From: Candidatus Poribacteria bacterium
GTDB taxonomy: Bacteria > Poribacteria > WGA-4E > GCA-2687025
Reading direction: 5' to 3'
DNA: 64,000 bases
Assembly (NCBI GenBank): GCA_963665845.2
Contig: OY762492.1
Span: 32,001 to 96,000 of the forward strand
This document shows positions 16,004 through 36,983 of the stretch, piece after piece (position 1 is the stretch's first letter; each line of letters opens with the position of its first letter). Position numbers and translations under genes: made by a program. The notes beneath the pieces were generated by a model, which made no database searches, was not told the DNA's origin, and saw nothing but the letters and a program-made list of their open reading frames with translations.

Positions 16004-17323
16004 TTACCGCGGGGGAGGCGCGGCAGGCGGTCCGTCAGAACGCTTGCGAAGACGGCGGCGCTCCGCCTCCGCCTCCGACTGGTAAAGATCATACAACTCC
16101 TTCAGTTGCAAAATGGAACGTTCCTCATCCGTTAAACCTTCGCCGGTCTGTTCCCGCTTGATCAAATCCAATAGGACTTGCAATTCGGGAGCGGAGATAC
16201 GCGGATTGGTTGACGGCCGCTTCGTCGCAGGCGCTTCAAAGTCTGGCGGAGGCGGAAGGGCGAGAGGGGATGGCTCCTTCGGTCCCGTTTCCGTTGGCGT
16301 TGGATCTGGACTTTGTTTATGTCCGACAGGATCTGGCGAACGCCCTGGCGGAGGCGCAACCGTCTTTGAAGGCGACGGCGCAGAATTCCAAGCCGACGGA
16401 CGCTCCAACCAAGCGGCCATTAATCCGTAGAGCGCGTCCTCAAATTGCATCCGCCCGTTAGGCGTTTGCATAACTTCATCTAAAATCGTTTGTTGAGCGG
16501 AGGTCGGGTTCGTCAAAAGCCCGTACATTCCTTCAACTAGGGGCTGCAATTCCTCATCGCTAAGATGCTTGAACGACTCTGCTGGATCCAGCGCCGCAGG
16601 CGCCTCCCCATGAGGAAGCTCTTGGCCGTCTTCTCCGATATAGACCACCTTGACGCCGGGAGGAGCCATGCCGCGGTGAATAACGTTGTGGTAGTCTTCG
16701 TCGGATAAAAGCTCTGCGTCTGCCCCGTCCTTGTAGCGGAACGCGTCCTGATTATAGGCAACGCCTCCCCCTTCAAAGATCGTCATTTGGGACATATCCA
16801 CATAGATAGTCGGGTCTCGAGGGCGTGAATCGCCCAGAGTTTCGTCCCATACATATTCTATGTACATGGGAGTGCCGAGAGGAGGGTGAAGGGTTTTCGG
16901 CAACGGCGCGTCGGCAAGCGCGACGCCTTGCCTCCAAAGCTCCTTGTATTCTTTCATAAGATAATCGGTCGTAATCTCTTCAATGTCGCTCGTATGCGGC
17001 CAGCCATCCTGCTTGCGTTCCACAAAAAAGTCGGCAAGATTTTCCTTGATCTGTTTTTCCCAAACGCTCCATTTTTCGTAATGGAACTTGAAGCCGTACT
17101 TTTCGCCGGCTTTGTCGAGAAGGTCGGCGTACGGCATCTCTTTGTTTTCTTTGGAGGAGGAGACGGCCGCCGTCTGCGCATTTTTGATTTTGACAGGGGG
17201 CGTTTGAAGAGCCTCCGTCTCTGGAGCAGGCGCGCTTTCTGAACTCGTCCACCGGCCGACCAGATAAGCTGCAACCGCCAGCAATACGATTCCGACAGCG
17301 ACAAGGGGTTTATTTTTCAGCAT
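16004..17323 (-). CDS. membrane-anchored hypothetical protein with Pro-rich segment
   Basis: 439-aa ORF, N-terminal hydrophobic anchor, no recognised domain. Confidence 0.7.
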   Translation of the reverse strand: MLKNKPLVAVGIVLLAVAAYLVGRWTSSESAPAPETEALQTPPVKIKNAQTAAVSSSKENKEMPYADLLDKAGEKYGFKFHYEKWSVWEKQIKENLADFFVERKQDGWPHTSDIEEITTDYLMKEYKELWRQGVALADAPLPKTLHPPLGTPMYIEYVWDETLGDSRPRDPTIYVDMSQMTIFEGGGVAYNQDAFRYKDGADAELLSDEDYHNVIHRGMAPPGVKVVYIGEDGQELPHGEAPAALDPAESFKHLSDEELQPLVEGMYGLLTNPTSAQQTILDEVMQTPNGRMQFEDALYGLMAAWLERPSAWNSAPSPSKTVAPPPGRSPDPVGHKQSPDPTPTETGPKEPSPLALPPPPDFEAPATKRPSTNPRISAPELQVLLDLIKREQTGEGLTDEERSILQLKELYDLYQSEAEAERRRLRKRSDGPPAAPPPR

Positions 17324-17530: not shown

Positions 17531-18283
17531 TCACGACGCCCCAACTTTAGGGGCGGTGTCGGCGATTTCGCTGCTCACATCGATCTCGTCCAGACCAAAG
17601 AGGGACGACTCCTCCTTTGCGGCGATCCGCCCGTTTTCTAGGTAGAGCGTCTCGTCGCAGGCGTCCGCCAGCTCCAGGTCATGCGTCGCCGTGAGAACGG
17701 CGATGCCGTCCTGCGCAAGCTCCTTGAAGAGGCCGCTGACGGCGCCGCGCATGGAGGTCTCTAAGCTGCCGGTTGGTTCGTCCGCGATGAGTATCTTGGG
17801 CGCGTTGACGACCGCTCTTGCGATGGCGACGCGCTGCCGGTCGCCGCTGTTCAGCTGCGACGCCGGCAGATTCCGTTTCCCGCTCAGCCCGACCCGTTCG
17901 AGCGTCTCGTCAACGCGCTTTCGGTCGAGCTTTTGACGCGAAAACAGGGTCGGGAGAAGCGCGTTTTCTTCAGCCGTCAGCGTCGGTATGAGATGAAAAC
18001 GCTGAAAGATGAAGCCGATCGTGTTGCGCCGAATCGCCGTCAGCTCCCGTTCGGAAGCGTTGGCGACATTCCGCCCGTTGATCCAAAGCTCTCCCTCCGA
18101 CGGCGAGTCGAGGCATGCAATCAGGTTCAGGAGCGTCGATTTGCCGGACCCTGACGGACCCGCCAGCGCCGTGACAGTACCTTCCTGCAGCTGAACATCG
18201 ACCCCGTCCAGAGCGCGCACGGTTTCGGACCCGCGCTCATACCGTTTTTTCAGTTGGATTCCTTCGGCGGCAAATTTGCTCAT
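17531..18283 (-). CDS. ABC ATPase (LolD/MacB type), degenerate signature
   Basis: GPSGSGKS; signature reads LNSGD; ILIADEPTG. Confidence 0.9.
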   Translation of the reverse strand: MSKFAAEGIQLKKRYERGSETVRALDGVDVQLQEGTVTALAGPSGSGKSTLLNLIACLDSPSEGELWINGRNVANASERELTAIRRNTIGFIFQRFHLIPTLTAEENALLPTLFSRQKLDRKRVDETLERVGLSGKRNLPASQLNSGDRQRVAIARAVVNAPKILIADEPTGSLETSMRGAVSGLFKELAQDGIAVLTATHDLELADACDETLYLENGRIAAKEESSLFGLDEIDVSSEIADTAPKVGAS

Positions 18284-18975
18284 GCTGTCCTCCTTTCCTC
18301 ACTGATGACGCCGTCCCGCAGATGCGCAACGCGGTCGGCGAGCGCGGCGAGCTTCGCGTTGTGCGTCGCGGCGACGACCGCAAGCCCCTGCGAATCCGCC
18401 AACTTGCGGAACAGCTGAAAGACCGCCAGCGAGTTCAGCACATCCAGATTCCCGGTCGGCTCGTCCGCAAGCAGAACCTTGGGGCGGTTCACCAACGCGC
18501 GCGCAATCGCCGTACGCTGCATTTCCCCGCCGCTCATTTCAGGCGGGCGGTGATCTTTTCGATGCTCAAGCCCGACCGCTTCCAGCAGCTCATGCGCGAT
18601 CCGCCCATTCTTTTTTCGGCTAAAGAACAGCGGCATTTCCACATTTTCCAGCGCGGTCAGATTCGGCAGCAGGTGGAACTCCTGAAAGACGAACCCGACC
18701 GTCTCTTGGCGCATCTTCGCGCGCTCTTTTTCGCTTTCGCTCCATGTTTGCCCGTTCACTTCGGCGGAGCCTTCCGTCGGCGCGTCCAGCCCGCCCAGCA
18801 GGTTGAGCAGCGTCGTTTTGCCGGCGCCGGAAGGTCCCATCACGACCACAAACTCGCCCGCCGACGCCTCAAAGTCCGCCTTTTTAAGGGCGTGTATCGA
18901 CTCGTTCGGCAGACGGTACGTTTTGCTGAGCTGCGCCGCTTTCACCATCTCATGTCCCTTTCCGAATCGCTTCAA
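18280..18975 (-). CDS. ABC ATPase (LolD/MacB type)
   Basis: GPSGAGKT, MSGGEMQR, LLADEPTGNLD. Confidence 0.92.
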   Translation of the reverse strand: MKRFGKGHEMVKAAQLSKTYRLPNESIHALKKADFEASAGEFVVVMGPSGAGKTTLLNLLGGLDAPTEGSAEVNGQTWSESEKERAKMRQETVGFVFQEFHLLPNLTALENVEMPLFFSRKKNGRIAHELLEAVGLEHRKDHRPPEMSGGEMQRTAIARALVNRPKVLLADEPTGNLDVLNSLAVFQLFRKLADSQGLAVVAATHNAKLAALADRVAHLRDGVISEERRTA

Positions 18976-20125
18976 TCGGGCGCATGGAGGCGGCGCGCGC
19001 CGCAGGATAAAGCCCCGCCGCCATGCCCAGCAATACCGCCCCGCCGGCGCATGCGGCCATCAAGCCGACCGTGATCGACATGATCGGACCGTTCGGCGCG
19101 TAGGTGAGCGCGTTGCGCACAAGCGACTCCACAATTTGCGCCGCCGCCAGCGCCAGGACGCATCCGATAAAACCGCCCGCGGCGCAGATCAGCGTCGTTT
19201 CGGACCAGATCAACCTGAAGATGTCCGCCTTGGAGGCGCCCATCGCTTTCATGATTCCGATCTCCTGCGTCCGCTCAAAAACCGACATGAGAATCGTGTT
19301 GATGACGCCGACCGCGGCGACGATGAGCGCAATCGCGGCGACCGACATGACCAGTATGCGCGCGCTTGACACAAGACCCATGATCGTCTGTTTCACCCGC
19401 GCCATCGTGACCACCTGTATGTCGGGTATTTCGTACATGTCCGCTTCAAACGCGCTTGTCGCGTTCAGTTCTTTCAGCTTGACGCCGACGCCGGTCAGCT
19501 TGTTTTCAAGATGCGGAAAAATGCTCTGCAGCGTTTCCATACGGACAAAAGCCATCGCGTCGTCCTGCGATCCGCTTCGTTCAAAGACGCCGACAACTTT
19601 GAGCGTCTCTTCTGTGCCGTGAACGAGTATGAAATCGCCTGGGCTCCGCTGGTCAAGTTCGGCGGCTTCATACCCAAGAACGACCTCGCCGGCCGCGCCG
19701 GGCGTGAGCCATTCTCCCTCTTTGAATTGCATCCACGGCTTCAACTGCCGATAGGCGTCCGTCACCCCCATGTAGATGCCGGTCGCTTCGCGGTCAGGGT
19801 CGTATGAAGCATGGAGCAGCTGCGGCATAAACTTGTCGACGCGCGGATCGCTCATGATGACCTGCGCCGTCTCTTCGCTGATGTAGGTCGGGTCGACGCC
19901 GCCGGCAAGCATCATCGTCGCGGCTTCGTAGGGGCAGCCCTTCGCCGTGACGAGCATCTGGTAGCCGAGCCTGTCGACATCGTCTTCGAGCGCGTTCTGG
20001 TAGCCGTTGTTGAACCCAAGCAGGCTCACCAGAACCGCCGCGGAGGCCGCGACGCCCGCGAGCGTCAAGGCGGTGCGCGTCTTTCGGCGGAACAGGTTTT
20101 TCCAGCTCAGTTTGAAAAAGCGCAT
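18950..20125 (-). CDS. MacB/FtsX-type ABC permease
   Basis: KNLFRRKTRTALT, SVFERTQEIGIMKAMGA, YPAARAASMRPIEA. Confidence 0.92.
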   Translation of the reverse strand: MRFFKLSWKNLFRRKTRTALTLAGVAASAAVLVSLLGFNNGYQNALEDDVDRLGYQMLVTAKGCPYEAATMMLAGGVDPTYISEETAQVIMSDPRVDKFMPQLLHASYDPDREATGIYMGVTDAYRQLKPWMQFKEGEWLTPGAAGEVVLGYEAAELDQRSPGDFILVHGTEETLKVVGVFERSGSQDDAMAFVRMETLQSIFPHLENKLTGVGVKLKELNATSAFEADMYEIPDIQVVTMARVKQTIMGLVSSARILVMSVAAIALIVAAVGVINTILMSVFERTQEIGIMKAMGASKADIFRLIWSETTLICAAGGFIGCVLALAAAQIVESLVRNALTYAPNGPIMSITVGLMAACAGGAVLLGMAAGLYPAARAASMRPIEAIRKGT

Positions 20126-20143: not shown

Positions 20144-20545
20144 TTATTCGATCGTGTTGCCGAGGCCGAGGATATAAACGGGGGCGTCTTCGGTGAATCG
20201 AACGCGCCCCTGAACGACCGATCTCTTCCCCGCCGAATTTTTGGGGATGGCGTAGGAATCTGACCGCATTTCAAGGTCCACCTTGATCTGCTGCGTCTCG
20301 TCGGCGATGTTGAACCAGCAGCCATGCTCTGGACACACCTTCGCGATCTTGCCTTCGACGCGGACGATTTTGTCATGGTACTCTTCAGGGTTGTTGAGAA
20401 TGTCGGCGATGGCCGTGGTTTCCGTTAAGTCGACCGCTTTCCCGTAGGACTTCTCGCCGGACTTTCCGCAGCCAATCAGAAGCGCGGCGGAGGCGAGAGC
20501 GATGACGAAGAAGCTGTTGCGGAGCGTTGCGGGGCGAATGTTCAT
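20144..20545 (-). CDS. OB-fold-like lipoprotein (DUF4920-like), copy 2
   Basis: Lipobox LIGC; YG...VRVEGKIAKVCPEHGCWF. Confidence 0.75.
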   Translation of the reverse strand: MNIRPATLRNSFFVIALASAALLIGCGKSGEKSYGKAVDLTETTAIADILNNPEEYHDKIVRVEGKIAKVCPEHGCWFNIADETQQIKVDLEMRSDSYAIPKNSAGKRSVVQGRVRFTEDAPVYILGLGNTIE

Positions 20546-20725
20546 TTTGAGTTTCCCTTTCTTGCTTTCAAGGAACTGTTACCGCGCTTTCGTTCAGGTT
20601 GAAAAGTCGGTTTTCAAAGCGTCCATGGTTTCAGTTCCTGGCAGGCGTCAAGGCGGCGCGCGTCTTTCGGCGAAGCAGGTTTTTCCAGCTCAATTTGAAA
20701 ACGCGCGCGCCTTGCTCCTTTCTGG
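20546..20725 (-). pseudogene. duplication scar: permease 5' remnant plus FMN-domain gene 3' remnant
   Basis: ~20645-20705 reads RVFKLSWKNLLRRKTRAALT, nearly identical to the permease start at 20062-20125; ~20560-20610 resembles 21261-21315. Confidence 0.75.
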
Positions 20726-21172
20726 TCACCGGATCGTGTTGCCCATGCCGATGAGTTGTATGGCTCCGTTGGACACGCGAACGCTGGCTTGAACCGACGC
20801 TTCTTTCCCCTTGGAACCCTTCGGAATCACGTACGGGTCGCTGCCCGCATCCAAGACCACCTTGATGCGCTCGGTGCCGTCGGCGATATAGAACCAGCAT
20901 CCCGACATCTGGCACACCTGGCCAATCTCGCCTTCTACGCGGACCGTCTTGCCGTCGTACGCTTCCGCGTTCTTTTTAATGTCGGCAATCGTTGATGTTT
21001 CGGTGACGGTGATCTCCTTGCCGTAAAGAACCCCGTCAGCAGCTTTCTCTTTAGAAGTGGACGTTTCGGGCGCGTCAGCGCCGTTCGTTTCCTTGTCTTT
21101 GGATTTTCCGCAGCCGGCAATCAGCGCAACGGAAATGACGAAAGCGGCGGCGAGAAAAAGGTTGCGTCGCAT
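20726..21172 (-). CDS. OB-fold-like lipoprotein (DUF4920-like), copy 1
   Basis: Lipobox IAGC; VRVEGEIGQVCQMSGCWF; paralogous to 20144-20545. Confidence 0.75.
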   Translation of the reverse strand: MRRNLFLAAAFVISVALIAGCGKSKDKETNGADAPETSTSKEKAADGVLYGKEITVTETSTIADIKKNAEAYDGKTVRVEGEIGQVCQMSGCWFYIADGTERIKVVLDAGSDPYVIPKGSKGKEASVQASVRVSNGAIQLIGMGNTIR

Positions 21173-21249
21173 GTTTCGGTTCCCTTTCTTTTGAAGGAAT
21201 GGTCGCTCGTTCTTTGGTTTCTGGTTGAAAGAGTTTGGAGCCGCTCCTT

Positions 21250-21882
21250 TCATTTCTCTTTCTTGATTTCATGGAATTGCTTGTCGTATTTGCGGTCCAG
21301 GTTGAAAAAGTCGGCGTAGATCAGGTTTTTGCGAACCGCGCGAACGGTCGCTTTGAAGTCGACAGCGCTTTTTTCGTTCGGCGAACGCAGAGCCGCCGCC
21401 TTTTTGGCGTTCAGGTAGAAGTCGCCGAGCGTCAGGTCTTTGAACTGAAGCAGCGTCTCTTCCGTCTTCAACGCTTTCGCGTGCGGCGACACGACCCGCT
21501 GGTACGACACCTTCAGGATCTTCCCCTCCAGATCCAGCGCTGTGAACACCTGCATCGCGCCGAATTGCCCTTTCTGGTTCACCCCAGAGACATAGCCGAT
21601 CGGCTTTTCCCCTTTGAGAACCACATAGGTGGTGTGTTCCAGGTCTGCAGGCTCATATTTTTTGTCCAGTTTGTCGCCGAGACGCGCCTCAAATTCTTTG
21701 ATCAGCGTCTCTCCGCCCGCCTCTTTGAGCGAGCTGACGACCGTTTTGTAACCGGTCGATTCAGGAAAAAACTTGCGGATGTCCCTGTCCGGCTTTTGAA
21801 GTTTGCATGCCGTGATCGCGTCGGCGCCGTTCGGCAGCGCGGCGGCGATCATGAAGGCGGCAAACAGAGCGATTCGTTTCAT
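21250..21882 (-). CDS. exported FMN-binding-like domain protein
   Basis: Signal peptide; IRKFFP..., KGQFGAMQVFTALDLEGKILKV, LLQFKD pattern; no [S/T]GAT motif. Confidence 0.55.
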   Translation of the reverse strand: MKRIALFAAFMIAAALPNGADAITACKLQKPDRDIRKFFPESTGYKTVVSSLKEAGGETLIKEFEARLGDKLDKKYEPADLEHTTYVVLKGEKPIGYVSGVNQKGQFGAMQVFTALDLEGKILKVSYQRVVSPHAKALKTEETLLQFKDLTLGDFYLNAKKAAALRSPNEKSAVDFKATVRAVRKNLIYADFFNLDRKYDKQFHEIKKEK

Positions 21883-21894
21883 GGGGCATTCCTT

Positions 21895-22860
21895 TCAAAA
21901 TGCAGTGTGAAGAAGCATGAGAAGAGCGGGGCGGCGCAGGTCCGTCAACTCTTGGGTGAACGCCGCCTCCCACGCAAACGAGAGCGGACCGCCGCTGAAT
22001 TCTCGGCGCAGCGAGGCGATTGCCCACGCCGCGTCCTGATGAGCGCGCGCGCTGACGGTCAACCGCCACGGGTCCATCGGACGAACGGCGGTCGCTTCGC
22101 CCGCATAAAGCCGCTTGCCGTTTCTCTGCCCGACCGACAGCTCCAAGCGCGGTTCAATCGTTCCGTTGAAGGCGAAGAGGACGGTTTGCAGGTCGAACGC
22201 GGCGCGCTGCTCCCCGTCTTGAATCGACGCGCCGTTCTGATGTTTCCACAGCGCCGAGACGCCGTATTGCATGACGCCGTCCGAATAAGGCTGAACGCGC
22301 GCGGACGCCGTCCATTCGCCTGCTTTCTTGTCGAACGGGTTGCGTTGGTTTCCTCCAAGAACAGCCGCTTCGTAGTCGAAGCTGTCCAGCTGCCCGTTCA
22401 GCGAGGCTCCCCATCGGCGCGCCGGTATTCCGTTCGACATGGACAAGCTGGGTATCAGCTCTCGGTGAAAATCGATAACGGGGTTCAGTCCGAACGGCGT
22501 TTTGAACCGTCCGAGGCGCAGGTTGGCGCGCCCGTTCAGCCCTCTTAAGTTGATGTAGGCGTCATGGATTTCGGCGCCCCAGTCGCCGCTTCTCTGCATG
22601 AAGCGGTTGTCCATGGCGAGGTTTTGCGTATGCGCATACCGCAGCTGCAGGGCGGCGGTCGCCCAGTCGCCGCTCTCGGTCGCCAGTATCTGTACGACTT
22701 CGATGCCGGCGGCGGCGCGGAGGGAGCTGACCAGCTCGTTGTCGGCGCGCGCGCCGCCGGCAGCGAGATAAAGCTCGCCGCTTGCCGTTCCCTCGGCATG
22801 AGCGAACGCGGCGGCCGCCATGCAGGCGGCGTATGTGAGTGTCCAAAGCGGTTTCCGCAT
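21895..22860 (-). CDS. outer-membrane beta-barrel (porin-like) protein
   Basis: Signal peptide; IHDAYINL, LRLGRFKTPFGL, amphipathic strands, terminal Phe. Confidence 0.65.
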   Translation of the reverse strand: MRKPLWTLTYAACMAAAAFAHAEGTASGELYLAAGGARADNELVSSLRAAAGIEVVQILATESGDWATAALQLRYAHTQNLAMDNRFMQRSGDWGAEIHDAYINLRGLNGRANLRLGRFKTPFGLNPVIDFHRELIPSLSMSNGIPARRWGASLNGQLDSFDYEAAVLGGNQRNPFDKKAGEWTASARVQPYSDGVMQYGVSALWKHQNGASIQDGEQRAAFDLQTVLFAFNGTIEPRLELSVGQRNGKRLYAGEATAVRPMDPWRLTVSARAHQDAAWAIASLRREFSGGPLSFAWEAAFTQELTDLRRPALLMLLHTAF

Positions 22861-22926
22861 GATAGGAAACGCCTTCTGTTGCGCAATGAAAGATGAAGGT
22901 TGTTGAAGCGCGCCGGTCTTGTTGAA

Positions 22927-23337
22927 TTAGACGGGGGGCGCTCTAGAGGGGTGGGCGGCGCGTCGAGGCGGAGGAGGAGGAAGCGCGCGGGATTCAAGAC
23001 AGGAGGAAGAGGCAGAAACGGGCGCGTTCAAGGCGGCGGCGCATTCGGTCATGCCAAGATCGAAGGAAGCGCCTATGTTCACCGTTTGCGCGGGGACAAC
23101 AGGCGCATGCTCGGCGCTCTCTTCAACGGAGCAATCGCTAGAGCAGAGCGGCTCTGCCGTCCCGCAACAGCAGGCGGCGGACCCCGTCGGCGAAACGTCG
23201 GCATAGGACGCCAGAAGGACCGCCGTCGGGAGAGTCGCCATCGCCGCTAAAATCAGAAAAATAGCGGCGGCATGTTGAACGCGCTGATGGTTCTTTGTGC
23301 GCATCGTTCCGCTCATGTGTATCGTCATGCCGTTCAC
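22927..23337 (-). CDS. Cys-rich leader protein with C-terminal RAPP motif (DUF2946/CutF/CruR-like)
   Basis: Hydrophobic N-segment, ACCCG..LCSSDC, C-terminus PPPPPRRAAHPSRAPPV*; true start may be one of the downstream ATGs. Confidence 0.7.
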   Translation of the reverse strand: MNGMTIHMSGTMRTKNHQRVQHAAAIFLILAAMATLPTAVLLASYADVSPTGSAACCCGTAEPLCSSDCSVEESAEHAPVVPAQTVNIGASFDLGMTECAAALNAPVSASSSCLESRALPPPPPRRAAHPSRAPPV

Positions 23338-23478
23338 TTTATTTATAACATGCGACGGGCGGGCGAGTCAAGCGTTTCACGATTTTTATGCTCGCCGCTC
23401 CCCTCATGCGCTTCGTCATGCCGTTCACTTTATTTATAACATGCGGCGGGCGGGCGAGTCAAGCGTTTCACGATTTTT
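23322..23478 (-). promoter_or_regulatory. duplicated sigma70-like promoter (66-bp direct repeat, period 91)
   Basis: 23322-23387 and 23413-23478 differ at 1 nt; each contains TTGACT...TGTTATAAAT on minus strand. Confidence 0.75.
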
Positions 23479-23480
23479 GA

Positions 23481-24770
23481 CTAATTTAGACTAGAAAATG
23501 GATTGAATAAACGGACGCAAGACAACTGCCACCGCTTCGCCTCCTCTGCAAACTGGCTGATGTCCATAAAGCGGGCGGGGCGGTCCGAAAGCGTTTCTTC
23601 GTTGCGCACATTCTGCCGCATCCGCGCGATATACTGCGGATGAAGCTCGGTCATGAAGAAATAACGCCCCAGCAGCAGAGCCGCCTTGCCGAGCGTTCCG
23701 CTTCCGCCGAACGGATCAAACACCAGATCGCCCCGAAACGAGTACAGCTTCACCGCCTGCATACACAGCTTCAACGGAAACACGGCGCTATGGACGCGGT
23801 CGGACGCCGGCGCAATCTCCCACACGTTCGAACGTTCAAAATCGTCGTCCACCTTGCTGCGCTGCGCGGCGTCTTCAGAATACTGCCGCAGGTTCCAGTC
23901 GATCAGCCTGCGCGACTTTTTCCGATACACCATCACATATTCGGTTCGCGCGTTCGCTTTGTAGGTCAACGGCGTTCGATTCGTCTCAAAACCCGCGACC
24001 CGATTTTTGACGCTTTTGTCCGGCTTCGCCCAGACGATGTCGTCAATAAACTCCCAGCCCATCGGCGTCAACCGCGCATGCAGGTCGAACGGAACCGCAT
24101 ACCGCCGGCTAGAATACTTGCGCCCCGCCCGCGGAACGATCACCGGCGATGTGTTTAAAACAAAAAACCGCCCCTCCTTCGTCACGCGGTGGACTGCCCG
24201 AAACGCTTCCTCTAAAAAGTCGAGATATTCGCCGTAGCTGCCGTAGATCGCATAGTCGCGCGCGTTGTAGTACGGCGGCGATGTGAAGGTCAGGTGAACG
24301 GACGCCGAAGGGACATGCCCCAGCGTCTGCAGCGCGTCCCCTTGAATCGCCGCGTTTTTCATGAAGTCGGGAGACGCCGCATGCGGCTCCTCCTCAACCG
24401 GCGCATTCCCCTCCAGCTCCTGCGCCACGATGTCCTGAATCATATCGTTCGGATGATTCCGCAGCCCGTTCAAAAACTGAACGACGGACGGATCCGACCG
24501 AAACACAAGCAGCCCGCGAATCGCCTGAAGCGCGATCTCCGGGTTCGGATGCTCCGCGTATTGCGTCAAGATCGGCTTGAGAGACGGATCGCGCTTTCTG
24601 CCGATAGAGGCGGCCGCCTCCCGCTTCTCGGCGGTGGACGCCTCGCTTTCAAGGACGGCGAGGCAATCCTCCAGCGGCATCTCCGCGGATCCCAAGAGGC
24701 GCCGCGTTTCCGTCGGCGCCTCCTCGCTCTCAAAGAGCGGGTTGTCGTAACGCTCTTCCTGGTTGGGCAT
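23481..24770 (-). CDS. beta-class N4/N6 DNA methyltransferase with N-terminal HEAT repeats
   Basis: FTSPPYY catalytic motif precedes DPFGGSGT SAM motif; N-terminal KREAAASIG...ALQAIRGL HEAT-like. Confidence 0.88.
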   Translation of the reverse strand: MPNQEERYDNPLFESEEAPTETRRLLGSAEMPLEDCLAVLESEASTAEKREAAASIGRKRDPSLKPILTQYAEHPNPEIALQAIRGLLVFRSDPSVVQFLNGLRNHPNDMIQDIVAQELEGNAPVEEEPHAASPDFMKNAAIQGDALQTLGHVPSASVHLTFTSPPYYNARDYAIYGSYGEYLDFLEEAFRAVHRVTKEGRFFVLNTSPVIVPRAGRKYSSRRYAVPFDLHARLTPMGWEFIDDIVWAKPDKSVKNRVAGFETNRTPLTYKANARTEYVMVYRKKSRRLIDWNLRQYSEDAAQRSKVDDDFERSNVWEIAPASDRVHSAVFPLKLCMQAVKLYSFRGDLVFDPFGGSGTLGKAALLLGRYFFMTELHPQYIARMRQNVRNEETLSDRPARFMDISQFAEEAKRWQLSCVRLFNPFSSLN

Positions 24771-24774
24771 GGTT

Positions 24775-25626
24775 TCAGTCCAGCCCCGCTTGATCCCACA
24801 CCTCTTTGAGCGCGTTTCCGACAACGCGCGCCGCTTCGTCCTTGTCTTCGATGCTGTTCAGCTTTTTGCTGAACGGCTCTGGGGTGACGGGACCGTCAAA
24901 ACCGATCTCGTTCAGCGCCTGCAGAAAGCCGACCAGATCGATGACGCCTGTTTCGCCCGGCAGGCAGCGGACGCTGTCGATCTGCTCTAAGACATCCACG
25001 CCCGCCGGCGCGTCGTTCACATGGACATAGACCACCTCCTCCGCGACCAGCTGGCGCAGGTCGGTGAGGGTGCTTTGGCAGGTGTACCAGTGCCAGCAGT
25101 CAAGCAGCAGCCCGACATTGCCTGTGCCGATGGCGCATCCGATCGCGAGCATCGCGTCCATCGTATAGACGCAGCCGTATCGGGCGCCGCGGCGCGAGGT
25201 GTGCGGACCGATGAACTCAAGACCGAGAACGCACCCGTAGTCGAGCAGAACCTTCGCCGTCAGGCCGAATCGGCGGACGAAGAAGTCGAACTGCTCCTGC
25301 CGCGTTTTGTCGTTTGACCATCCCGCGACCCATGTCATCGTGCGGTATGATCCGAGCTCCGCCGCCAGCTGCGCGTGTTCCGGCAGCTTGGACAGGCTTT
25401 CGTAAAATTGCGCGTCGGTTCCGTTCCAGTGAACGGGCAGCGGCCATGCGCCGATGCGGATTCCCGCCTCGTCATACATCTCCTTGACCGCCGACGCCCC
25501 CAGTTGATGCGCTTGACCCAGATTCAGGTCAAGCCCCTGAAAACCGCCGATCTTTGCGTAATGCAGCCCCTTTTCAATCGTGTCGGCATGAATGCCGACG
25601 GCGCCGGGCGATAAGTTTCGGTACAT
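24775..25626 (-). CDS. sugar-phosphate isomerase/epimerase (TIM barrel)
   Basis: LGLEF, LLLDCWHW, HVND, LPGETGVIDL, PEPFS. Confidence 0.88.
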   Translation of the reverse strand: MYRNLSPGAVGIHADTIEKGLHYAKIGGFQGLDLNLGQAHQLGASAVKEMYDEAGIRIGAWPLPVHWNGTDAQFYESLSKLPEHAQLAAELGSYRTMTWVAGWSNDKTRQEQFDFFVRRFGLTAKVLLDYGCVLGLEFIGPHTSRRGARYGCVYTMDAMLAIGCAIGTGNVGLLLDCWHWYTCQSTLTDLRQLVAEEVVYVHVNDAPAGVDVLEQIDSVRCLPGETGVIDLVGFLQALNEIGFDGPVTPEPFSKKLNSIEDKDEAARVVGNALKEVWDQAGLD

Positions 25627-29906: not shown

Positions 29907-32900
29907 TTAGTCGGAAGCGAACGCGGGCTGGCTTTCCTCGCGTCCGCGCGCGTGAAACTCGCCCCGCAGCTCCACATTGAAGGTGCGCCATATCAACAAT
30001 TGCTTGCGTATCAAATTGAGAAAGCGCCGGTTGACCCGCTTCCACGACGCGATCTCCCCGCTCTCGCGGTAGATCGTCAGGTGAATGCGGCACAGGTCTT
30101 CCTCCTCGCCCCCGACGGGCGACGTCTGCAAACTGATCCGCTGGCTCACTCCAAGATCGTACGGCGCAAGCCAGATCATCATCTCAATTGCAAACTGCTC
30201 CTTAGACTCTCCCTCTGGACGTTCACGTTTAAACGTTACATTGTCGGCGTAAAAGTCGCTTGCCGATTCATCCGCATGCGCCTCAAAATAGTCGCGCATG
30301 AAGATGTTCAGTCCAAGCGCCTCTTCGCCCAAAACCGTAAACGGCAGATCAAAATTCCACTCGTCGCCGTCCGGGTCGGGCAGCCTCCATTTGCGTTCAA
30401 TGTCCGGCACCGCCATGCGCCCCGCTTTAATCGCCGGGTAGAGCGTTGACGCCAAAACAACAAACATAACGATCATCGTTGCATAGACCGTCGAACGCGC
30501 CGAATAGTTGAGCGTCAAACCGGCGAGCCATCCTGTCTGCACAAGGGTCCATGCGGTCGCCTGACCAATCAAATATCCGACCACCGCTCCCAAAACCGCA
30601 TAGACGCACGCCTCCGCCATGAACAAAAACGCGATATGGACGGGCGCCAAACCGACCGCGCTGTAGATGCCGATCTCGCGGACGCGCTCATAGACGGCGC
30701 CCAGCATCGTGTTCAACACAATCAGCGCGGCAATCAAAATCGGAATGAACAGGTTGCTCATCTGCTCCGTCGATGAGCCGCCAATGGAGCTGTAAAGATA
30801 GACGTTGCGCCCCTTGCCGACAAAAAAGTCCAAGCCCGACCGCTTCATGATCGGCGCCATGACCGCGTCAATCTTCTGCTCTACCGAGACGCCTTCGGGA
30901 AGCTCCTTGTTCAGATCCTGCATGTTGACCGCAACCGACTTCACATTGCCGCCTGAATCGAGCGCCAGCTGATAAGGTATGACCGCAATCTGATCAGGCG
31001 GAAGGTGCTGATATTTCTGCAGCTCGCCCTCCAGCGTCTCATCGGTCGATTGCCGCTGTTGCTGCTGCTGGAGGAGCGTGTAGTCGACAGGCGTCAGCTC
31101 TTCGCCGTCCAGATCGCGCAGCTCCTTGAAGTCGATGCCGAGAACGCCTACGACGGTGAAATCGGCGCCGAGAAGTCGAACCTGCGCCGTCTCATTCACA
31201 ACCGCTTCTTCCGTGATTCCAAGCGAGTCCGCCATTCCCTTCGGCAGAACGCACACGTAGGCGTCCCGCTCGTTCTCCTCAAACCAGCGTCCGTACGCCA
31301 GCTTCGAATCGATGCGCGTTACCCGCTTTTCTTCGGGCGCCATGCCGACCAGCATAGCGGCGTTGTACGCCCTGTCAGGCTCCATGAGGCTTTCGATGCG
31401 GATGGAGGACTGGTTTCCGACGCTTGCCGACTCATACCATGCCCGCGGGGCGACGACGTTGGTCGCTTCTATCTGGTACGTCTCGCCGTCCGCGCGCGCT
31501 TCGATGGTCGATTTAGAAAAGTTTGTCTTGGCGCCTTCGACGACCGGCTCCTCCAGCGGGCGCCAGTACTGATCGCGTATCAGCGCGCCTTGATAGCTCG
31601 GCGTCACGCCCGGTATGCGCGTTGAGTGCGCCCGTATCTCCGTCCGAACCGAGGTGAAGGAGATGACCGTAAAGGTGAGGGCGATGAGCGTCGCGCAGGT
31701 CAACAGGGTGCGCCCGCGCCGCTTGCGCATGTTGGAGATGCCGAGAGAGAACGCCGCCGCGCTCGCCGACAGGCGCCCGACATCCGCCTTGTAGATGCGC
31801 GACTTCTCCCGCCGCATCTGCTCCAGCTGCTCGTTGAACTTGCGCAAAATGATCGAGATAACAACGATGGTGAGCGCGAGAATGATGAACGCGATCAGGA
31901 TGATGAACGCTGTCTCGGCGATCTCAAACGCCGGATGGACGCGGCTTAAAAAGAAAAAGACGGCTAAGAAGATGCCGAAGGTGTAAAGGATGCGCTTGTT
32001 GATATTCGTCGCTGAAAAGAGGAGCCGTTCCCCAAAAAGCGAGAACGGCAGCAGCAGAAACAGGTAGAACATGACGCCGCGGATCACATCGTTGCCGGTC
32101 GCTTTGACGTCTGGATAGGCGATCGATTCGTTGCCCCATCCCGCGCGCGCCTTTTTGAGCGCCGCAGAGTATTCGTTCGCCGCGAGCAGCGTCTCCGCCT
32201 CGTTCAGCAGGCGCGCCGCTTCGCCATGCAGCTCCTCTAGGCGCTGGTTGCTGATGCCGTAACGTCTGTACATGCCGATGCGCGCCTCGTCCAGACGCCA
32301 CATGTCCTGAACGACCACATACGGCGTGACGCGGATGGAGCCGTTTTCAAGCGCCAGATACCCTTCGCCTGTGTAAAGCGTCGGGTTTTCGACGTTCGTC
32401 TCGGTCGCCTTCACCAGAAGCAGCAGCTTGCCGAGCAGCCCCGACGTCATGCTGATTTTGACGCGCGCGCCCGGTTCCGAATAGACCAGCGCGATCGGCT
32501 CCGCCGCGGACACCATCGGCTGCGACCATGGCGCGGACGCCCCGTAACGCTCCGGCGGCGCGTCCCGAAAAGCGTCAAACACCTGCAGAGAGGTCAGCGT
32601 ACGCAGATAGCGCTGGTCGACAAGATCGTAGATCGTGGTGCTGACGCATGGAAACGCGACCACATTTGCGCCGACGCGCCGGCGGTTCACGGCCACATTG
32701 CGCGGATAGATCTTGTCGCCGAACTCGCCCAGGTCGGGCGCATACGCAATATCGCCCGAATCTTTGTCGAGAACAAACGCCTCGACCGTTTGCCGCCCGC
32801 CTGGACGGCGCGTCGCCCTGCCCTCCATCGCCAAGCCGCTGACGACATACTTGCCTTTCTGGTTGCCTAATACGGTCAGGTCGCCGCGGACGCCCATCAT

Positions 32901-35900
32901 CGTTTTGTTGCGGCGGCGCACGATGACGACCGCGTCCTGAACGGGCGTCTGCGGAACGGCGCTCTCCCGCGCGTCATACTCGACGACACGCCCGGTGAGC
33001 GTCACATAAAAGTTGCCGACGCGCGCCGAGGTCGGCATCTTCGGATCGCGCAGCGTCTGAACCATGAGAGACGCGAGCGTCTGTACCTGCTCGCTTAGGT
33101 TTTCAAAGTTGAGCCTGTCGTAGGTGTCCAGCGGCGTGTCGGTATAAACGCGCCCGTCGTTCACGGTGGCGAACGCGATTCCTGTTTTGCCGGACAGCGT
33201 CGCCACCTCCGAGTCGAAGGCGATCTTGCCGGGGATGTAGGTCTGCCAAGTGTTGCCGCCGCTGGCGCTGATGGCGTTCACAAAGTTGGTCTCGGAGCGG
33301 ATGCCCGCCATGCTTGTCAAGGCGCGCAGGTCGCTGATCTCCTCCTCCGTCAGCTCTTCGATGGGAACATTCTTGAGCGCCAGCATCTTTTCAACGCGCG
33401 CGAAAAGCCGTTTCGTCGATTTGCGGCGGCGGCGCGTCTCGCGTATGTCGTTGCGGACGAACCGCTCCGCCTCCTTGCGGATGTAGTCGATGTCTTTCAA
33501 CATCGTTTTGGACGGCTCGCCTTTCTCGCGCATGTCTTCAAACTGCAGCTTCATCAAACGGCTCACGCCGCCGAGCGTTTTGAGCGTGTCGTAATGGTCA
33601 AAGACAAGCGTTTCAAGCGTCTTGCCTTCCAGCTCCTCCAGCGCCGCTAAGCGGTCGGCGACCGCCCATTGACTTGTTAAAATCGCCTGTTTGATATGGT
33701 CGTCGGGAAATTTGCGCAGCGTCTCAAGGTTCCGCTTCAGGTTCGCGTTCAACGCATATTCGGACAGCTTATTGCCGATGGGGGCATATTCTCGGCGCAG
33801 GCTGAATTCGCGGTTGTCGTCGTAAAACCAGCCCTTGTAAAAGACGCCGAAATCTTTGCTCTGCGTTGACAAATCCAGCGAGACGACAAGCGACTGATAA
33901 TACTGCCCCAGTTCCTGTTGAAGCTGAAGCGACTGAATCACATTGCCGATGCGTTCTGAATACTCCGCCGTGTCGATGCGCGAGAGCCGCTCCACACGTT
34001 TATGTACATTCCGCACGCGCGAGTTGCGCATCGTCAGGAGGTTGTTGCGCAGGAGCCGTTTTTCGTCTTCGTTGTATGCTCTGTCCATGGAGGGCAGCTC
34101 TTGTGCCAGGCGGTTCAGCTCCAAGATGTCGTTGCGCGCCTGACGCAGCGCCTTTTCCAGAAGCGATTTTTCCTCATGCTCCGCGAACAGCTGGCGGCGC
34201 GCCGTCTCCAGCGTTTTCATGTCTTCTTGAGATAAATGGCGGCGAAGGGCAAGCCGTTCTTCATGGCGAAACTCGCGCTGGAGCCTGTCCGACTCCGACA
34301 GCGTCAACAGCTGCTCAATGCGGCGCGGCTCCCACTCAATGCGCCGGCGGGCGATCTCCAGATAGCGCGCCGCCTCGCGGGACGCCGCCTCCTTCGCCTT
34401 CGGGTCGCGCATCTCTTCGTATATGCGCCCCATTGCCGCCAGTTCGTCTTCGGTTAAGTACATCTCCAGCAGACGTTTCGCGTCTCGAAACGACCCGTCC
34501 AGCAAGCCGTCCATCGCTTCTATGTCGGCGTCGCGTTCGCCGGAGGTTTCAAACGCGGCCGCCGATTCCAGCGCCGTATTCAGCAGCCGCCTCTCGTCGG
34601 ACAGGTAGCTCTCGCTGTCCAGTTCCCGCTCATGCAGCGCGGCGCGCGCCCGGCGAATGCGCCCCAGCTCCAGCGCTGTCAGGTGCCGTCCGAGTATCTT
34701 GTCGGGGACATACATGCGGGCGATGCGCCCTCTTTCGATCTCCCAATCTTCCAGCGCCTGCGGCTCCGCTAGGCTTGCCAGCGCCTCGTTCGGGTCGATC
34801 TGTCCGTAGCCCGGTATGGCGGCGGTCGGCATCTGCGGGGCGGAACTCAACAGTTCGGCGCGCAGATAAAGCGGGAGAATCGAATCGGTTTCATCGCGCG
34901 GATATTCGCCGCCGTATTCCCCCTTCGCCAGGCTTTCGGCGATGGCGTCCATCGCCCAGACATCCACCTTCGCCAACGGCAGCGCAATGTCGATGATCTG
35001 CCGCCGCTCCGTGTCGCGCGCCTGCCGCAAGGCGGCCGCTTTCAAGTCGCCGACGCGCGCCGCGATGCCCTTTAAAAACTGCGCCGTCTGAATGCCTAAA
35101 AACTCCGCCCGCGCCAAACCGGTGTCCAGAAGGGCGCGCTCCTCGTCGGTGAACTCCTGGCGGTCGCGGTTTTTGGAAAGGTCAACCGTCGTGCGTTTCC
35201 GCTCATCCTCTTTAAAGGAGCGCTGCTGCTCCTTTAACCGATCCACGCGCGACTGAACGGCGCTCAAATCTTCTAAACTCAACTCAACCGATTTCAGATC
35301 GGTCGACAGCGCCTCCACCCGGTGAAAGAAGGCGGGCGGAAACTCGACCAGATAGCCGCGGTCAATCGACAGCGCGATCTTGCGCCCCAGCTCGGAAAAC
35401 TCGATGGCGTCGGAATTCAGGTCGCGCCGAAGTTCCCGCATCGCCTCGACATTGTCTTGACTCAACCCCTCCATGAAAGCGCGCATGCCTGACAAGCCTG
35501 AAAAATGCCCTCCCGTCGCCAAAAACAGCGCCGAACGGCTAGGGCGGAATTCCGGCTGGCTCAAGAGGCGTATCAGTTCCAGCATCGCTGCGATGCCGCT
35601 GGTCGTCTGCGCTCCCGGCGCCAGAGACGGAACGACCGACATCGAATCGTAATAGGTCTGAATGACAATCAGCTCGTCGCGGAGAGACGGATCGCTCCCG
35701 CGCAGAAGCCCCGTGATGTTCTGCCCCTGCCGGCTTTCCCAGCGCACATCGCAGGTGAGCTGGGCGTCCAAAGCCGCGCCGGCGTCCATCTCTTTCAATA
35801 AAAATTCGGCGTCGTCGCGTCCGATCCAGAAGCGGGGAATGCTTGCCGGCACCGTCAAAAACTTGTTCTCCGCCGCGCCGCGCAAGGTGTCTTCAGGCTC

Positions 35901-36983
35901 TATGAACAAGACCGCCTGCGCGCCCAGCATCGCGGCGTTGATCCAGTTGGAGCTGGCGTTGAAGTCGATGAGAGCGACGGCGCCCTGCGGTATGAAAAGG
36001 GAAGCTTCGTCCGCCTTGGCGGGGTCTTCATCCGCCGTTTCGTCAATGTTACCGTCCTCGTCGTTGTCGATCCCGTCGGACGCCCAGCCGGCGATGGTGG
36101 AGAGTGGATCGATTTCGCCGTCCTCATCGATTTCGCCGTCTCCGTCGTTGTCGATGCCGTCCGTTGAGCGGCTCAAATGCAGGTTTAGGATGTCGTCCAG
36201 AATGGCGCCGGTCGTCACGCGGTGGCGGCGCGCGACCGACTCCAACGTGTCGCCCGGTTGAACAGAGACCCAGAAGCCGCCGATCGGCTGCCCGTCAAAA
36301 TCGGACAGGTCGCCTGTCCCGCCGTATGCCAAACGCCCTTCAAGCCCGCCTGTTGGGATGAAGATCGGCGCGCCTTCTACAGGCGTGATCTCTCCGTCCA
36401 GATCGGCGTCGTCCACATAGCCGTCGTTGTCGTTGTCTAAGCCGTCGCTGCGTTGACCGCGGAGGGAGGCGTTGCGCGGGTCGTTCACGATGGCGTCCGC
36501 GCTGACGCGGTAGTCGGAGGCGAGGGAGGCTAACGTTTCGCCCTGCCCGACGCGCCGTTTCAACCCGTTCGGAATGAAGGAGGTGCGCGCCAAATTCGGC
36601 CAGATCGAACGCACATCAATCTGGCGCAGTACCGTTCCGTTTGATGAGACGGTCAGGCGTCCGCTTTCGCGTTCCACGGGCGTTGCGACGGAGAAGGAGC
36701 GCGACTCAACCTCCTCTAGCCCAAGATCATGGAACCGGTCGAACACATACTTTGCGGCGCTGTCGGCTCCTGGGTAGCCGACGATGCGCGACTCCAGCGC
36801 CGTTAGACGCGCCATATCGCGTTTGATCCGATCGATCTCGACGGCTTGCCGAATCGCTTCCGCGTCCTCGGAGAGCGTCAACTTGGAACGCTGCGCATGC
36901 GAGGAGATAAACGGGAGCGCCGCCAGCGCCAGAAGAACGGCAAGCAAGAGCCGCTTTTTTTCAGAACCGCAAATCGTTTTCAT
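29907..36983 (-). CDS. giant exported LysM/PA/M28-like protein fused to FtsX/MacB-type permease
   Basis: Signal peptide; SRIVGYPGADSAAKYV; 2 LysM; NITGLLRGSD..YYDS; ISNMRKRRGRTLLT; AVYERVREIGIYSAVGL. Confidence 0.85.
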   Translation of the reverse strand: MKTICGSEKKRLLLAVLLALAALPFISSHAQRSKLTLSEDAEAIRQAVEIDRIKRDMARLTALESRIVGYPGADSAAKYVFDRFHDLGLEEVESRSFSVATPVERESGRLTVSSNGTVLRQIDVRSIWPNLARTSFIPNGLKRRVGQGETLASLASDYRVSADAIVNDPRNASLRGQRSDGLDNDNDGYVDDADLDGEITPVEGAPIFIPTGGLEGRLAYGGTGDLSDFDGQPIGGFWVSVQPGDTLESVARRHRVTTGAILDDILNLHLSRSTDGIDNDGDGEIDEDGEIDPLSTIAGWASDGIDNDEDGNIDETADEDPAKADEASLFIPQGAVALIDFNASSNWINAAMLGAQAVLFIEPEDTLRGAAENKFLTVPASIPRFWIGRDDAEFLLKEMDAGAALDAQLTCDVRWESRQGQNITGLLRGSDPSLRDELIVIQTYYDSMSVVPSLAPGAQTTSGIAAMLELIRLLSQPEFRPSRSALFLATGGHFSGLSGMRAFMEGLSQDNVEAMRELRRDLNSDAIEFSELGRKIALSIDRGYLVEFPPAFFHRVEALSTDLKSVELSLEDLSAVQSRVDRLKEQQRSFKEDERKRTTVDLSKNRDRQEFTDEERALLDTGLARAEFLGIQTAQFLKGIAARVGDLKAAALRQARDTERRQIIDIALPLAKVDVWAMDAIAESLAKGEYGGEYPRDETDSILPLYLRAELLSSAPQMPTAAIPGYGQIDPNEALASLAEPQALEDWEIERGRIARMYVPDKILGRHLTALELGRIRRARAALHERELDSESYLSDERRLLNTALESAAAFETSGERDADIEAMDGLLDGSFRDAKRLLEMYLTEDELAAMGRIYEEMRDPKAKEAASREAARYLEIARRRIEWEPRRIEQLLTLSESDRLQREFRHEERLALRRHLSQEDMKTLETARRQLFAEHEEKSLLEKALRQARNDILELNRLAQELPSMDRAYNEDEKRLLRNNLLTMRNSRVRNVHKRVERLSRIDTAEYSERIGNVIQSLQLQQELGQYYQSLVVSLDLSTQSKDFGVFYKGWFYDDNREFSLRREYAPIGNKLSEYALNANLKRNLETLRKFPDDHIKQAILTSQWAVADRLAALEELEGKTLETLVFDHYDTLKTLGGVSRLMKLQFEDMREKGEPSKTMLKDIDYIRKEAERFVRNDIRETRRRRKSTKRLFARVEKMLALKNVPIEELTEEEISDLRALTSMAGIRSETNFVNAISASGGNTWQTYIPGKIAFDSEVATLSGKTGIAFATVNDGRVYTDTPLDTYDRLNFENLSEQVQTLASLMVQTLRDPKMPTSARVGNFYVTLTGRVVEYDARESAVPQTPVQDAVVIVRRRNKTMMGVRGDLTVLGNQKGKYVVSGLAMEGRATRRPGGRQTVEAFVLDKDSGDIAYAPDLGEFGDKIYPRNVAVNRRRVGANVVAFPCVSTTIYDLVDQRYLRTLTSLQVFDAFRDAPPERYGASAPWSQPMVSAAEPIALVYSEPGARVKISMTSGLLGKLLLLVKATETNVENPTLYTGEGYLALENGSIRVTPYVVVQDMWRLDEARIGMYRRYGISNQRLEELHGEAARLLNEAETLLAANEYSAALKKARAGWGNESIAYPDVKATGNDVIRGVMFYLFLLLPFSLFGERLLFSATNINKRILYTFGIFLAVFFFLSRVHPAFEIAETAFIILIAFIILALTIVVISIILRKFNEQLEQMRREKSRIYKADVGRLSASAAAFSLGISNMRKRRGRTLLTCATLIALTFTVISFTSVRTEIRAHSTRIPGVTPSYQGALIRDQYWRPLEEPVVEGAKTNFSKSTIEARADGETYQIEATNVVAPRAWYESASVGNQSSIRIESLMEPDRAYNAAMLVGMAPEEKRVTRIDSKLAYGRWFEENERDAYVCVLPKGMADSLGITEEAVVNETAQVRLLGADFTVVGVLGIDFKELRDLDGEELTPVDYTLLQQQQQRQSTDETLEGELQKYQHLPPDQIAVIPYQLALDSGGNVKSVAVNMQDLNKELPEGVSVEQKIDAVMAPIMKRSGLDFFVGKGRNVYLYSSIGGSSTEQMSNLFIPILIAALIVLNTMLGAVYERVREIGIYSAVGLAPVHIAFLFMAEACVYAVLGAVVGYLIGQATAWTLVQTGWLAGLTLNYSARSTVYATMIVMFVVLASTLYPAIKAGRMAVPDIERKWRLPDPDGDEWNFDLPFTVLGEEALGLNIFMRDYFEAHADESASDFYADNVTFKRERPEGESKEQFAIEMMIWLAPYDLGVSQRISLQTSPVGGEEEDLCRIHLTIYRESGEIASWKRVNRRFLNLIRKQLLIWRTFNVELRGEFHARGREESQPAFASD

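Follow-up and report, generated by a model that had tools for sequence, protein, structure and literature searches.

What does a small, cysteine-rich protein ending in RAPP do directly ahead of an outer-membrane protein gene in Candidatus Poribacteria? The window analysed here is a stretch of 64,000 nucleotides of contig OY762492.1, and a sequence-only reading of it had described a candidate leader peptide with a hydrophobic segment, CCC and CxxxC clusters and a RAPP C-terminus. All of these elements are present in the minus-strand ORF 22927-23337, and 66 nt separate this ORF from the ATG at 22860 of the outer-membrane protein gene, behind which a MacB-type ABC operon continues on the same strand. 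The leader region of this genome (G000) is laid out as follows, with a genome of the same genus (G001) for comparison:

22927..23337, minus strand, leader ORF, 136 aa from the GTG at 23337, more likely 125 aa from the ATG at 23304
23212..23268, minus strand, hydrophobic export segment (residues 24-42) behind a basic N-region, from hydropathy (Kyte-Doolittle 19-mer, 2.35)
23131..23172, minus strand, Cys cluster, CCC (56-58) plus CxxxC (65-69), with 62 residues from the last Cys to the Arg of RAPP
22966..22980, minus strand, PPPPP run (residues 120-124), strain-specific and not conserved in relatives
22933..22944, minus strand, RAPP motif (residues 132-135), the predicted arrest site, followed by V136 and the stop codon
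23342..23371, minus strand, promoter-like TTGACT-N18-TATAAA with a TG extension, conserved in G001 and absent from the consensus-scan calls (0 sites)
23294..23475, no strand assigned, tandem duplication of 91 nt (89% identity) that covers the promoter-like element together with the leader 5' end, single copy in G001

The GTG start at 23337 is doubtful because only 4 nt separate it from the -10-like hexamer, and the ATG at 23304, which is the start used by four of five database homologues and by the leader of a sister operon (L116), is probably the real one. The scan for consensus promoters and intrinsic terminators returned none above shuffle level at the leader locus. The upstream copy of the 91-nt duplication opens a 29-codon out-of-frame ORF that ends at the second -10-like element, and the short-read contig graphs of three runs of one study contain the collapsed 91-nt repeat together with a bridging piece. 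Next to the duplication lies a gene for a HEAT-repeat N6/N4 DNA methylase (23481-24824, minus strand; also L004:5663-6580). In G001 the gene after this methylase encodes a CfrBI-like restriction endonuclease (Pfam E 3e-18), and because the endonuclease has no tblastn match in G000, the G000 methylase is read as an orphan, the endonuclease loss adjoining the duplication.

A RAPP ending alone proves nothing, because RAPP-like endings are common in six-frame translation: 62 six-frame ORFs of 40-260 aa in this genome carry one, 43 of which are RAPP itself. Bare motif counting was likewise ruled out as evidence, since RAPP, RGPP and RAGP are not enriched upstream of the operon in the 160 best-match loci introduced below (11, against 9, 9 and 8 elsewhere). 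What carries weight is the conservation of RAPP before homologous operons, a check that the sequence-only reading had proposed and that came out in favour of the motif. The leader ORF of G001 is 64% identical and keeps the Cys cluster and SRAPP, with a diverged linker before RAPP, and the four full-length database homologues (P0127-P0130) all end in SRAPPFSV. All five cluster cysteines and RAPP are kept in G001 and P0127-P0130, i.e., in five of five other full-length close homologues, and the spacing from the last cluster Cys to the Arg is 62 in each of these and in G000. A fifth database homologue, P0131, continues as another sequence beyond residue ~70 and is without RAPP. The L116 leader also has RAPP and shows no detectable similarity to this leader. 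RAPP is thus beyond chance here, because it is kept in G001 despite linker divergence, in four of four further full-length homologues and in L116. The PPPPP run, in contrast, is not kept, the longest proline runs in five close sequences being 5, 2, 2, 2 and 4. In the crude gene calls of this genome RAPP is scarce (7 seen, 25 expected; for AAPP, 53 and 38), and the available text of PMC12992588 reports its under-representation in bacteria generally.

The coding character of the ORF emerges from the comparison of G000 with G001, in which the reading frame is preserved across indels and 19 codons show synonymous differences, 13 of these changes falling in the diverged half. Changes in the conserved blocks are most frequent at third codon positions (8/4/12), and residues 1-75 carry 14 non-synonymous and 6 synonymous changes. 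The leader gene is real and conserved, its ORF is very probably translated, and the nascent peptide is highly likely to arrest the ribosome. Neither the leader nor its relatives have a family match in Pfam or NCBIfam. A profile of eight leaders retrieved from 1.84 billion representatives only three proteins in three clusters, of which two were already part of the profile and the third is almost identical to its L116 sequence, and from 176 genomes of the phylum only G000, G001 and one stop-interrupted stretch (E 0.004); the sequence family, as seen in these searches, is tiny and lineage-restricted. In a screen of 25233 segments of this genome for a hydrophobic segment, Cys/His and a C>G end, nine were hits and only this one is leader-like. 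RAPP and Cys conservation, the first position in the operon and the tiny lineage-restricted family agree with the earlier proposal of a cis-acting, Cys-containing RAPP leader of the CruR/CutF type.

The genes behind the leader encode a porin, exported proteins and an ABC transporter:

21895..22860, minus strand, porin-like outer-membrane beta-barrel, 321 aa (model pLDDT 87.8; best Foldseek match OmpU, E 3e-11)
21250..21882, minus strand, exported RnfG/NqrC-fold (FMN-binding-like) protein with invariant Cys26, flavinylation-type motif absent
20726..21253, minus strand, DUF4920-like OB-fold lipoprotein, copy 1, below the Pfam cut-off (24.6 vs 25 bits)
20144..20545, minus strand, DUF4920 OB-fold lipoprotein, copy 2 (Pfam)
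18950..20125, minus strand, MacB/FtsX-type permease with an invariant KGCPYEAA
18280..18975, minus strand, ABC ATPase, LolD/MacB type
17531..18283, minus strand, second ABC ATPase, LolD/MacB type

The porin gene product is predicted to be a 16-strand-type barrel, strands not formally counted. The model of the RnfG/NqrC-fold protein (hereafter FMN-fold protein) has a pLDDT of 94.8 and a best match at E 1e-4 and TM 0.51, and its flavinylation is unlikely because [ST]GA[ST], which we take to be the flavinylation motif, occurs in only 3 of 150 family members. One invariant Cys each is found in the FMN-fold protein (145/145), DUF4920 (63/63) and the permease (108/108). The Poribacteria operon has lost other family-conserved residues, with Arg at the porin His118 and Met173 positions and Ser at His99 of the FMN-fold protein. 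The content of the operon includes no sec or yidC gene. G004 and G042 also have the operon, on contigs that break off within the porin gene or just short of it, and a scan of metagenomes with the porin alignment turned up no relative.

Several observations concern the surroundings of these genes. The DUF4920 lipoprotein gene is duplicated in tandem in G000 and present in one copy in G001, and 62 nt of the permease 5' end (20062-20123) are repeated behind the first DUF4920 gene (20645-20706). About 200 nt beyond the operon lies an ORF for a 439-aa membrane-anchored protein (16004-17323, minus strand) with a Pro-rich tail ending in PPPR and no Pfam family over cut-off. Elsewhere in the window, a 2358-aa ORF with a signal peptide and many membrane segments (29907-36983, minus strand) precedes a gene for a 686-aa membrane protein and some small ORFs.

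The same operon (porin, FMN-fold protein, DUF4920 lipoproteins, MacB-type ABC transporter) spans many phyla with a stable gene order. The FMN-fold protein has 611 homologues, and 160 loci (L036-L195) were assembled from the best 80 of 415 genome matches and the best 80 of 392 metagenome matches to it. Upstream classes, which overlap, were counted in the 95 of these best-match loci that have at least 2.5 kb upstream. A same-strand gene of the CsoR family heads the operon in 24 of the 95 and a divergent one is found in one more, while YtkA-like genes (by matches below the cut-off) occur in 46, YHS in 6 and none of these in 23. The Cu(I) fingerprint Tyr-Cys-His-Cys-Glu, the Tyr of which predicts Cu(I) sensing and selectivity according to the available part of PMC4235346, is present in 30 of 30 aligned CsoRs, and the nearest solved structures to the operon CsoRs are copper CsoRs. 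TAC-N9-GTA operators with G/C tracts, which match the CsoR consensus published in PMC3902906 (as given in the part available), lie upstream in 16 of the 24 CsoR loci and in none of five leader loci among the best matches. The CsoR-headed form was found in Omnitrophota, Planctomycetota and others. CsoR lifts its repression upon copper binding, and CsoR-headed copies of the operon should therefore be copper-induced.

Among the best-match loci the operon splits into a DUF4920 subtype, to which 23 of the 24 CsoR loci belong, and a YtkA-like subtype (0/45 with DUF4920), the two forming well-separated clades; most YtkA-type loci have neither CsoR nor leader. A quick permease tree with 65 rows, to which 23 of the 45 YtkA loci were offered and for which no direction of replacement is claimed, places the operons of G000, L036, L037 and L116 in one clade (support 100). 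This clade falls inside the DUF4920 subtype, which also holds 22 of 23 CsoR rows, and the branch to its relatives is long (0.73). The CsoR-controlled and the leader-headed forms are alike in gene content and order and in the invariant cysteines of their exported parts, and differ in that a Cu(I)-type repressor and its operator stand where Poribacteria have the leader peptide. Judged by these relatives, the porin-MacB operon is a probable copper-handling system. The sequence-only reading had left the metal open, and the Cu(I)-fingerprint CsoR over the same operon in other phyla now points to copper.

No CsoR gene was detected in G000 or G001 (genomes about 90% complete). All 160 best-match loci were scanned with a rule that asked for ORFs of 70-260 aa with a hydrophobic segment, at least 3 Cys and PP among the final 18 residues. 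Of 1178 upstream sense segments 6 satisfied the rule, as did 6 of 4008 control segments; three leaders were already known when the rule was drawn up, and only L117 and L123 are new to it. Five of the six are leader-like ORFs that lie 66-204 nt before the first operon gene, and the remaining one (L184) lies a long way upstream and resembles a shadow frame. Their tails carry RAPP in L036 (the G001 locus) and L116, RSPP in L117 and L123, and SPPLY in L064 (Nitrospinota), RSPP being partly permissive for arrest according to the available text of PMC12992588. The leaders scarcely align, with only L117 and L123 matching each other (E 1e-6). Each has a Cys 59-63 residues before its motif, a shared spacing that is only suggestive because this Cys was chosen among several. 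No best-match locus has both a leader and CsoR, and the five leader loci are without CsoR or operator, an exclusion that reflects few events rather than 29 because the loci are related and partly duplicates. L048, which is near the leader loci in the permease tree, has neither.

Some of these loci have peculiarities of their own. The RSPP leaders (L117:1660-2046 and L123:1401-1802) head a rearranged operon with DUF4920 and ABC genes ahead of the porin, and in Nitrospinota a Cys/His-rich exported ORF (L064:4252-4653) with a different tail type, ending SSPPLYILKSSFLN, stands at the head of the operon. In five of eight genomes of the family, CsoR-family genes head P-type-ATPase-like genes (assigned by eye) and no porin-family match was found there. 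G000 itself has a copper P-type ATPase gene (L209:2847-5165; G000:C1 about 1502300-1504700) with no CsoR or RAPP leader ahead of it and a divergent 156-aa ORF upstream.

How arrest on the leader might reach the operon depends on the RNA between RAPP and the porin gene, which has three relevant features:

22930..23019, minus strand, C>G unstructured mRNA stretch, candidate Rho loading site (46 C, 16 G, MFE -10.1 kcal/mol), the skew of which runs into the intergenic region
22861..22926, minus strand, leader-porin intergenic region, 66 nt (21 C, 11 G), with a GCGC arm that is the predicted pairing partner of the R-A-P codons
22846..22875, minus strand, hairpin predicted around the start codon of the porin gene, also in G001 and without compensatory changes

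The excess of C over G in the last 90 nt of the leader (30) is equalled by none of 2515 long ORFs of the genome, and its folding energy of -10.1 kcal/mol compares with a median of -27.9 kcal/mol for the same stretch of 300 folded long ORFs. Part of the skew follows from Pro and Ser codons. The excess nevertheless goes beyond random synonymous recoding in G000 (p<0.001), G001 (0.003), L116 (0.010), L117 (0.014) and L123 (0.009), and is absent by the same measure from L064 (p 0.55) and from codons 21-50. The intergenic skew alone is ordinary, as 10.5% of 1356 control regions show it. A rho gene is present in the genome, and in cruR a C>G bubble at the same place holds a mapped Rho site (PMC9426467, in the part available). 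The pairing of the R-A-P codons with the downstream GCGC arm is predicted in both G000 and G001, without compensatory pairs. In equilibrium folding, blocking the footprint of a ribosome at RAPP shifts the opening of the porin ribosome-binding site (RBS) by 0.3-0.9 kcal/mol in G000, by -0.7 to 2.8 in G001 and by 0.2-1.0 in L116 with the TTG start. The porin RBS has an opening energy of 13.2, a value inside the range of the genome, for which the median is 10.4 and the 90th percentile 17.3. Melting of the Shine-Dalgarno by a stalled ribosome thus receives no support from folding, the change in G000 being 0.3-0.9 kcal/mol. Of the translational sensor that had been proposed, the cis-acting leader is supported and the translational output is the less likely one, Rho-dependent attenuation being likelier given the strong C>G bubble and the lack of predicted RBS opening; Rho is, on the present RNA predictions, somewhat favoured as the output.

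These elements can be assembled into a tentative model, less than evenly probable as a whole, in which a copper-sensing ribosome-arrest leader would turn on the porin-ABC operon, copper prolonging the arrest and the ribosome blocking Rho. The nascent leader would enter the Sec channel by its hydrophobic segment. The ribosome tunnel holds 35-40 residues, so a spacer of 62 leaves roughly 25 beyond it, enough to cross the Sec channel, and the ~62 residues from the last Cys to the Arg could place the Cys cluster outside the inner membrane while the ribosome is at RAPP. Without copper, export would pull the chain free, the ribosome would leave, and Rho could load on the C-rich end of the leader and end transcription ahead of the porin gene. 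With copper bound, release would be delayed, and the stalled ribosome would stand between the Rho site and RNA polymerase and let the operon be transcribed. That copper should prolong the arrest follows from the combination of a stalled ribosome that shields the transcript from Rho with relatives that are on in copper. Of the parts of this model, the metal is probably copper and the operon leans towards going on with the metal, both because the same operon sits under a Cu(I)-fingerprint CsoR in other phyla; the copper and the "on" would be borrowed by analogy from these relatives, across the long branch (0.73). It is possible, if rather doubtful, that the leader is a hybrid switch in which a CutF-like input (copper outside the inner membrane) is wired to a CruR-like Rho output and so produces copper induction. 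Copper-prolonged arrest is published for the poly-Pro motif of CutF and not for RAPP, within the available parts of PMC9973294 and bioRxiv 10.1101/2025.02.05.636593.

The closest known system is CruR (Bp2923) of Bordetella pertussis, a DUF2946 (PF11162) protein (PMC9426467). It shares with the Poribacteria leader the first position in the operon, an export signal (here by hydropathy), a Cys motif, RAPP only a few residues from the C-terminus, an outer-membrane protein gene as the next gene and a C>G bubble that covers the 3' part of the ORF and continues into the intergenic region. However, CruR has CxxC, which occurs in none of six sequences examined here, whereas the Poribacteria leader has CCC plus CxxxC, the latter in the five close ones. 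The spacing from Cys to RAPP is 45 in CruR against 62 in G000, G001 and P0127-P0130, and the gap to the next gene is 162 nt against 66 nt. The CruR target is a TonB-dependent transporter and not a porin with a MacB-type ABC transporter, and copper represses there while the Poribacteria operon would be copper-induced. PF11162 matches neither the leader nor its relatives nor anything else in G000, and the leader likely works like CruR and CutF while standing outside DUF2946 by HMM, CxxC and spacing. CutF of Rhodobacter capsulatus (PMC9973294; bioRxiv 10.1101/2025.02.05.636593, as available) would be alike in periplasmic sensing and copper induction. The leader also agrees with those rules of the CutF-like set in the available text of PMC9973294 that were tried, i.e., fewer than 150 aa, CxxxC, PP in the last 15 residues and a same-strand neighbour within 1000 nt. 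CutF differs in its poly-Pro run, which is rescued by EF-P, whereas the conserved motif here is RAPP and poly-Pro is not kept; probably in its Shine-Dalgarno hairpin opened by the stalled ribosome, for which folding gives little support here within ribosome reach; and in its multicopper oxidase target, which the Poribacteria leader lacks. ApdA, ApdP, ApcA, SecM and the wider RAPP/RGPP class (PMC12992588, as available) are also small, exported and equipped with RAPP near the C-terminus, ahead of envelope or metal genes, but ApdA, ApdP, ApcA and SecM have sec or yidC downstream, whereas the Poribacteria leader has neither and carries a Cys cluster.

The resemblance to CruR raises the reading of opposite polarity, in which arrest would be the default and keep the operon on, and copper would free the ribosome and let Rho terminate, giving a copper-repressed operon with an uptake or delivery role in Poribacteria. 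RAPP and the C>G bubble are as in cruR, where this polarity is shown (PMC9426467), RAPP arrest is robust and resists EF-P (PMC12992588, in the available text), the porin is the first gene, and family-conserved residues are changed in the Poribacteria lineage. Such a polarity is nevertheless unlikely, given that the relatives stand under a Cu(I)-fingerprint CsoR with its operator, i.e., a copper-induced arrangement, and that CruR requires its spacing of 45 within about 2 residues, as far as the published part states, against 62 here. An output of the CutF type, in which the stalled ribosome would change the mRNA fold so that the hairpin no longer covers the porin ribosome-binding site, would agree with CsoR in direction. 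It also fits the start-codon hairpin and the R-A-P/GCGC pairing predicted in G000 and G001, and a 66-nt gap that is within the usual range of CutF-like genes (PMC9973294, as available). The small changes in opening energy in G000, G001 and L116, the lack of compensatory pairs, an opening energy that is ordinary for the genome and gaps of 204 nt in L123 and 173 nt in L064 make it decidedly unlikely.

The input, rather than the output, may also be different, as another thiophilic metal, the disulfide or redox state of the periplasm or the capacity of Sec export could act on an arrest leader of this kind. CCC and CxxxC are not metal-specific, one invariant Cys per exported operon protein suits thiol chemistry as well, and RAPP leaders precede thioredoxin/DsbA and many other genes (PMC12992588, available text), but the CsoR, YHS and YtkA/FixH-like neighbours lean to copper, even with YtkA matches below cut-off, and the operon is without sec or yidC, so that such an input is quite unlikely. 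Very unlikely is the reading without any regulator, in which the ORF would encode a small exported metal-binding protein or belong, untranslated, to a long 5' leader, its RAPP being incidental. The 62 chance RAPP-like endings of the genome, the equal motif rates up- and downstream in the best-match loci, the surplus of non-synonymous over synonymous changes in residues 1-75 (14 to 6) and the missing family match speak for it. Against it stand the frame kept through indels, the 13 synonymous changes in the diverged half, the third positions that vary most in the conserved blocks, and the RAPP or RSPP that four leaders have at an equivalent position although their sequences are hardly or not at all similar. 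The preferred reading is still the copper-sensing arrest leader with Rho as its output.

The class of Cys-rich RAPP leaders is itself already well known, with small RAPP proteins ahead of many metal genes (PMC12992588) and 5334 CutF-like proteins catalogued (PMC9973294), as the available parts of these sources describe. The literature search found no paper on the porin-MacB operon, the Poribacteria leader or a swap of leader and CsoR, and none on DUF4920. The portions covered of the supplements of PMC12992588 and PMC9973294 gave no Poribacteria or DUF4920 match; because the list of 5334 lay outside them, the leader may be in that list under an accession. Thousands of Cys-rich RAPP leaders are predicted, and only two have been tested, acting oppositely via different outputs: CruR, the tested RAPP copper leader, the ribosome arrest of which is shown (PMC12992588) and in which copper releases the arrest and shuts the operon (PMC9426467; PMC12992588, both as available), and CutF. 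For most of these leaders neither the metal nor the direction is readable from the sequence. Here the CsoR-headed relatives give an outside prediction (copper, on) and the RNA gives one for the output (Rho), and what sets polarity in such leaders is therefore directly testable.

The finding draws attention to an undescribed porin-MacB operon, probably for copper handling, in which the leader holds the slot that a copper-type repressor gene occupies in many other bacteria. If the hybrid switch is true, it would give copper induction from parts that yield copper repression in CruR, and a ruler of 60-63 residues, ~17 longer than that of CruR, would place sensing beyond the membrane. Leaders interchangeable with CsoR at one undescribed copper operon would, if true, be a natural swap between translational and transcriptional sensing.
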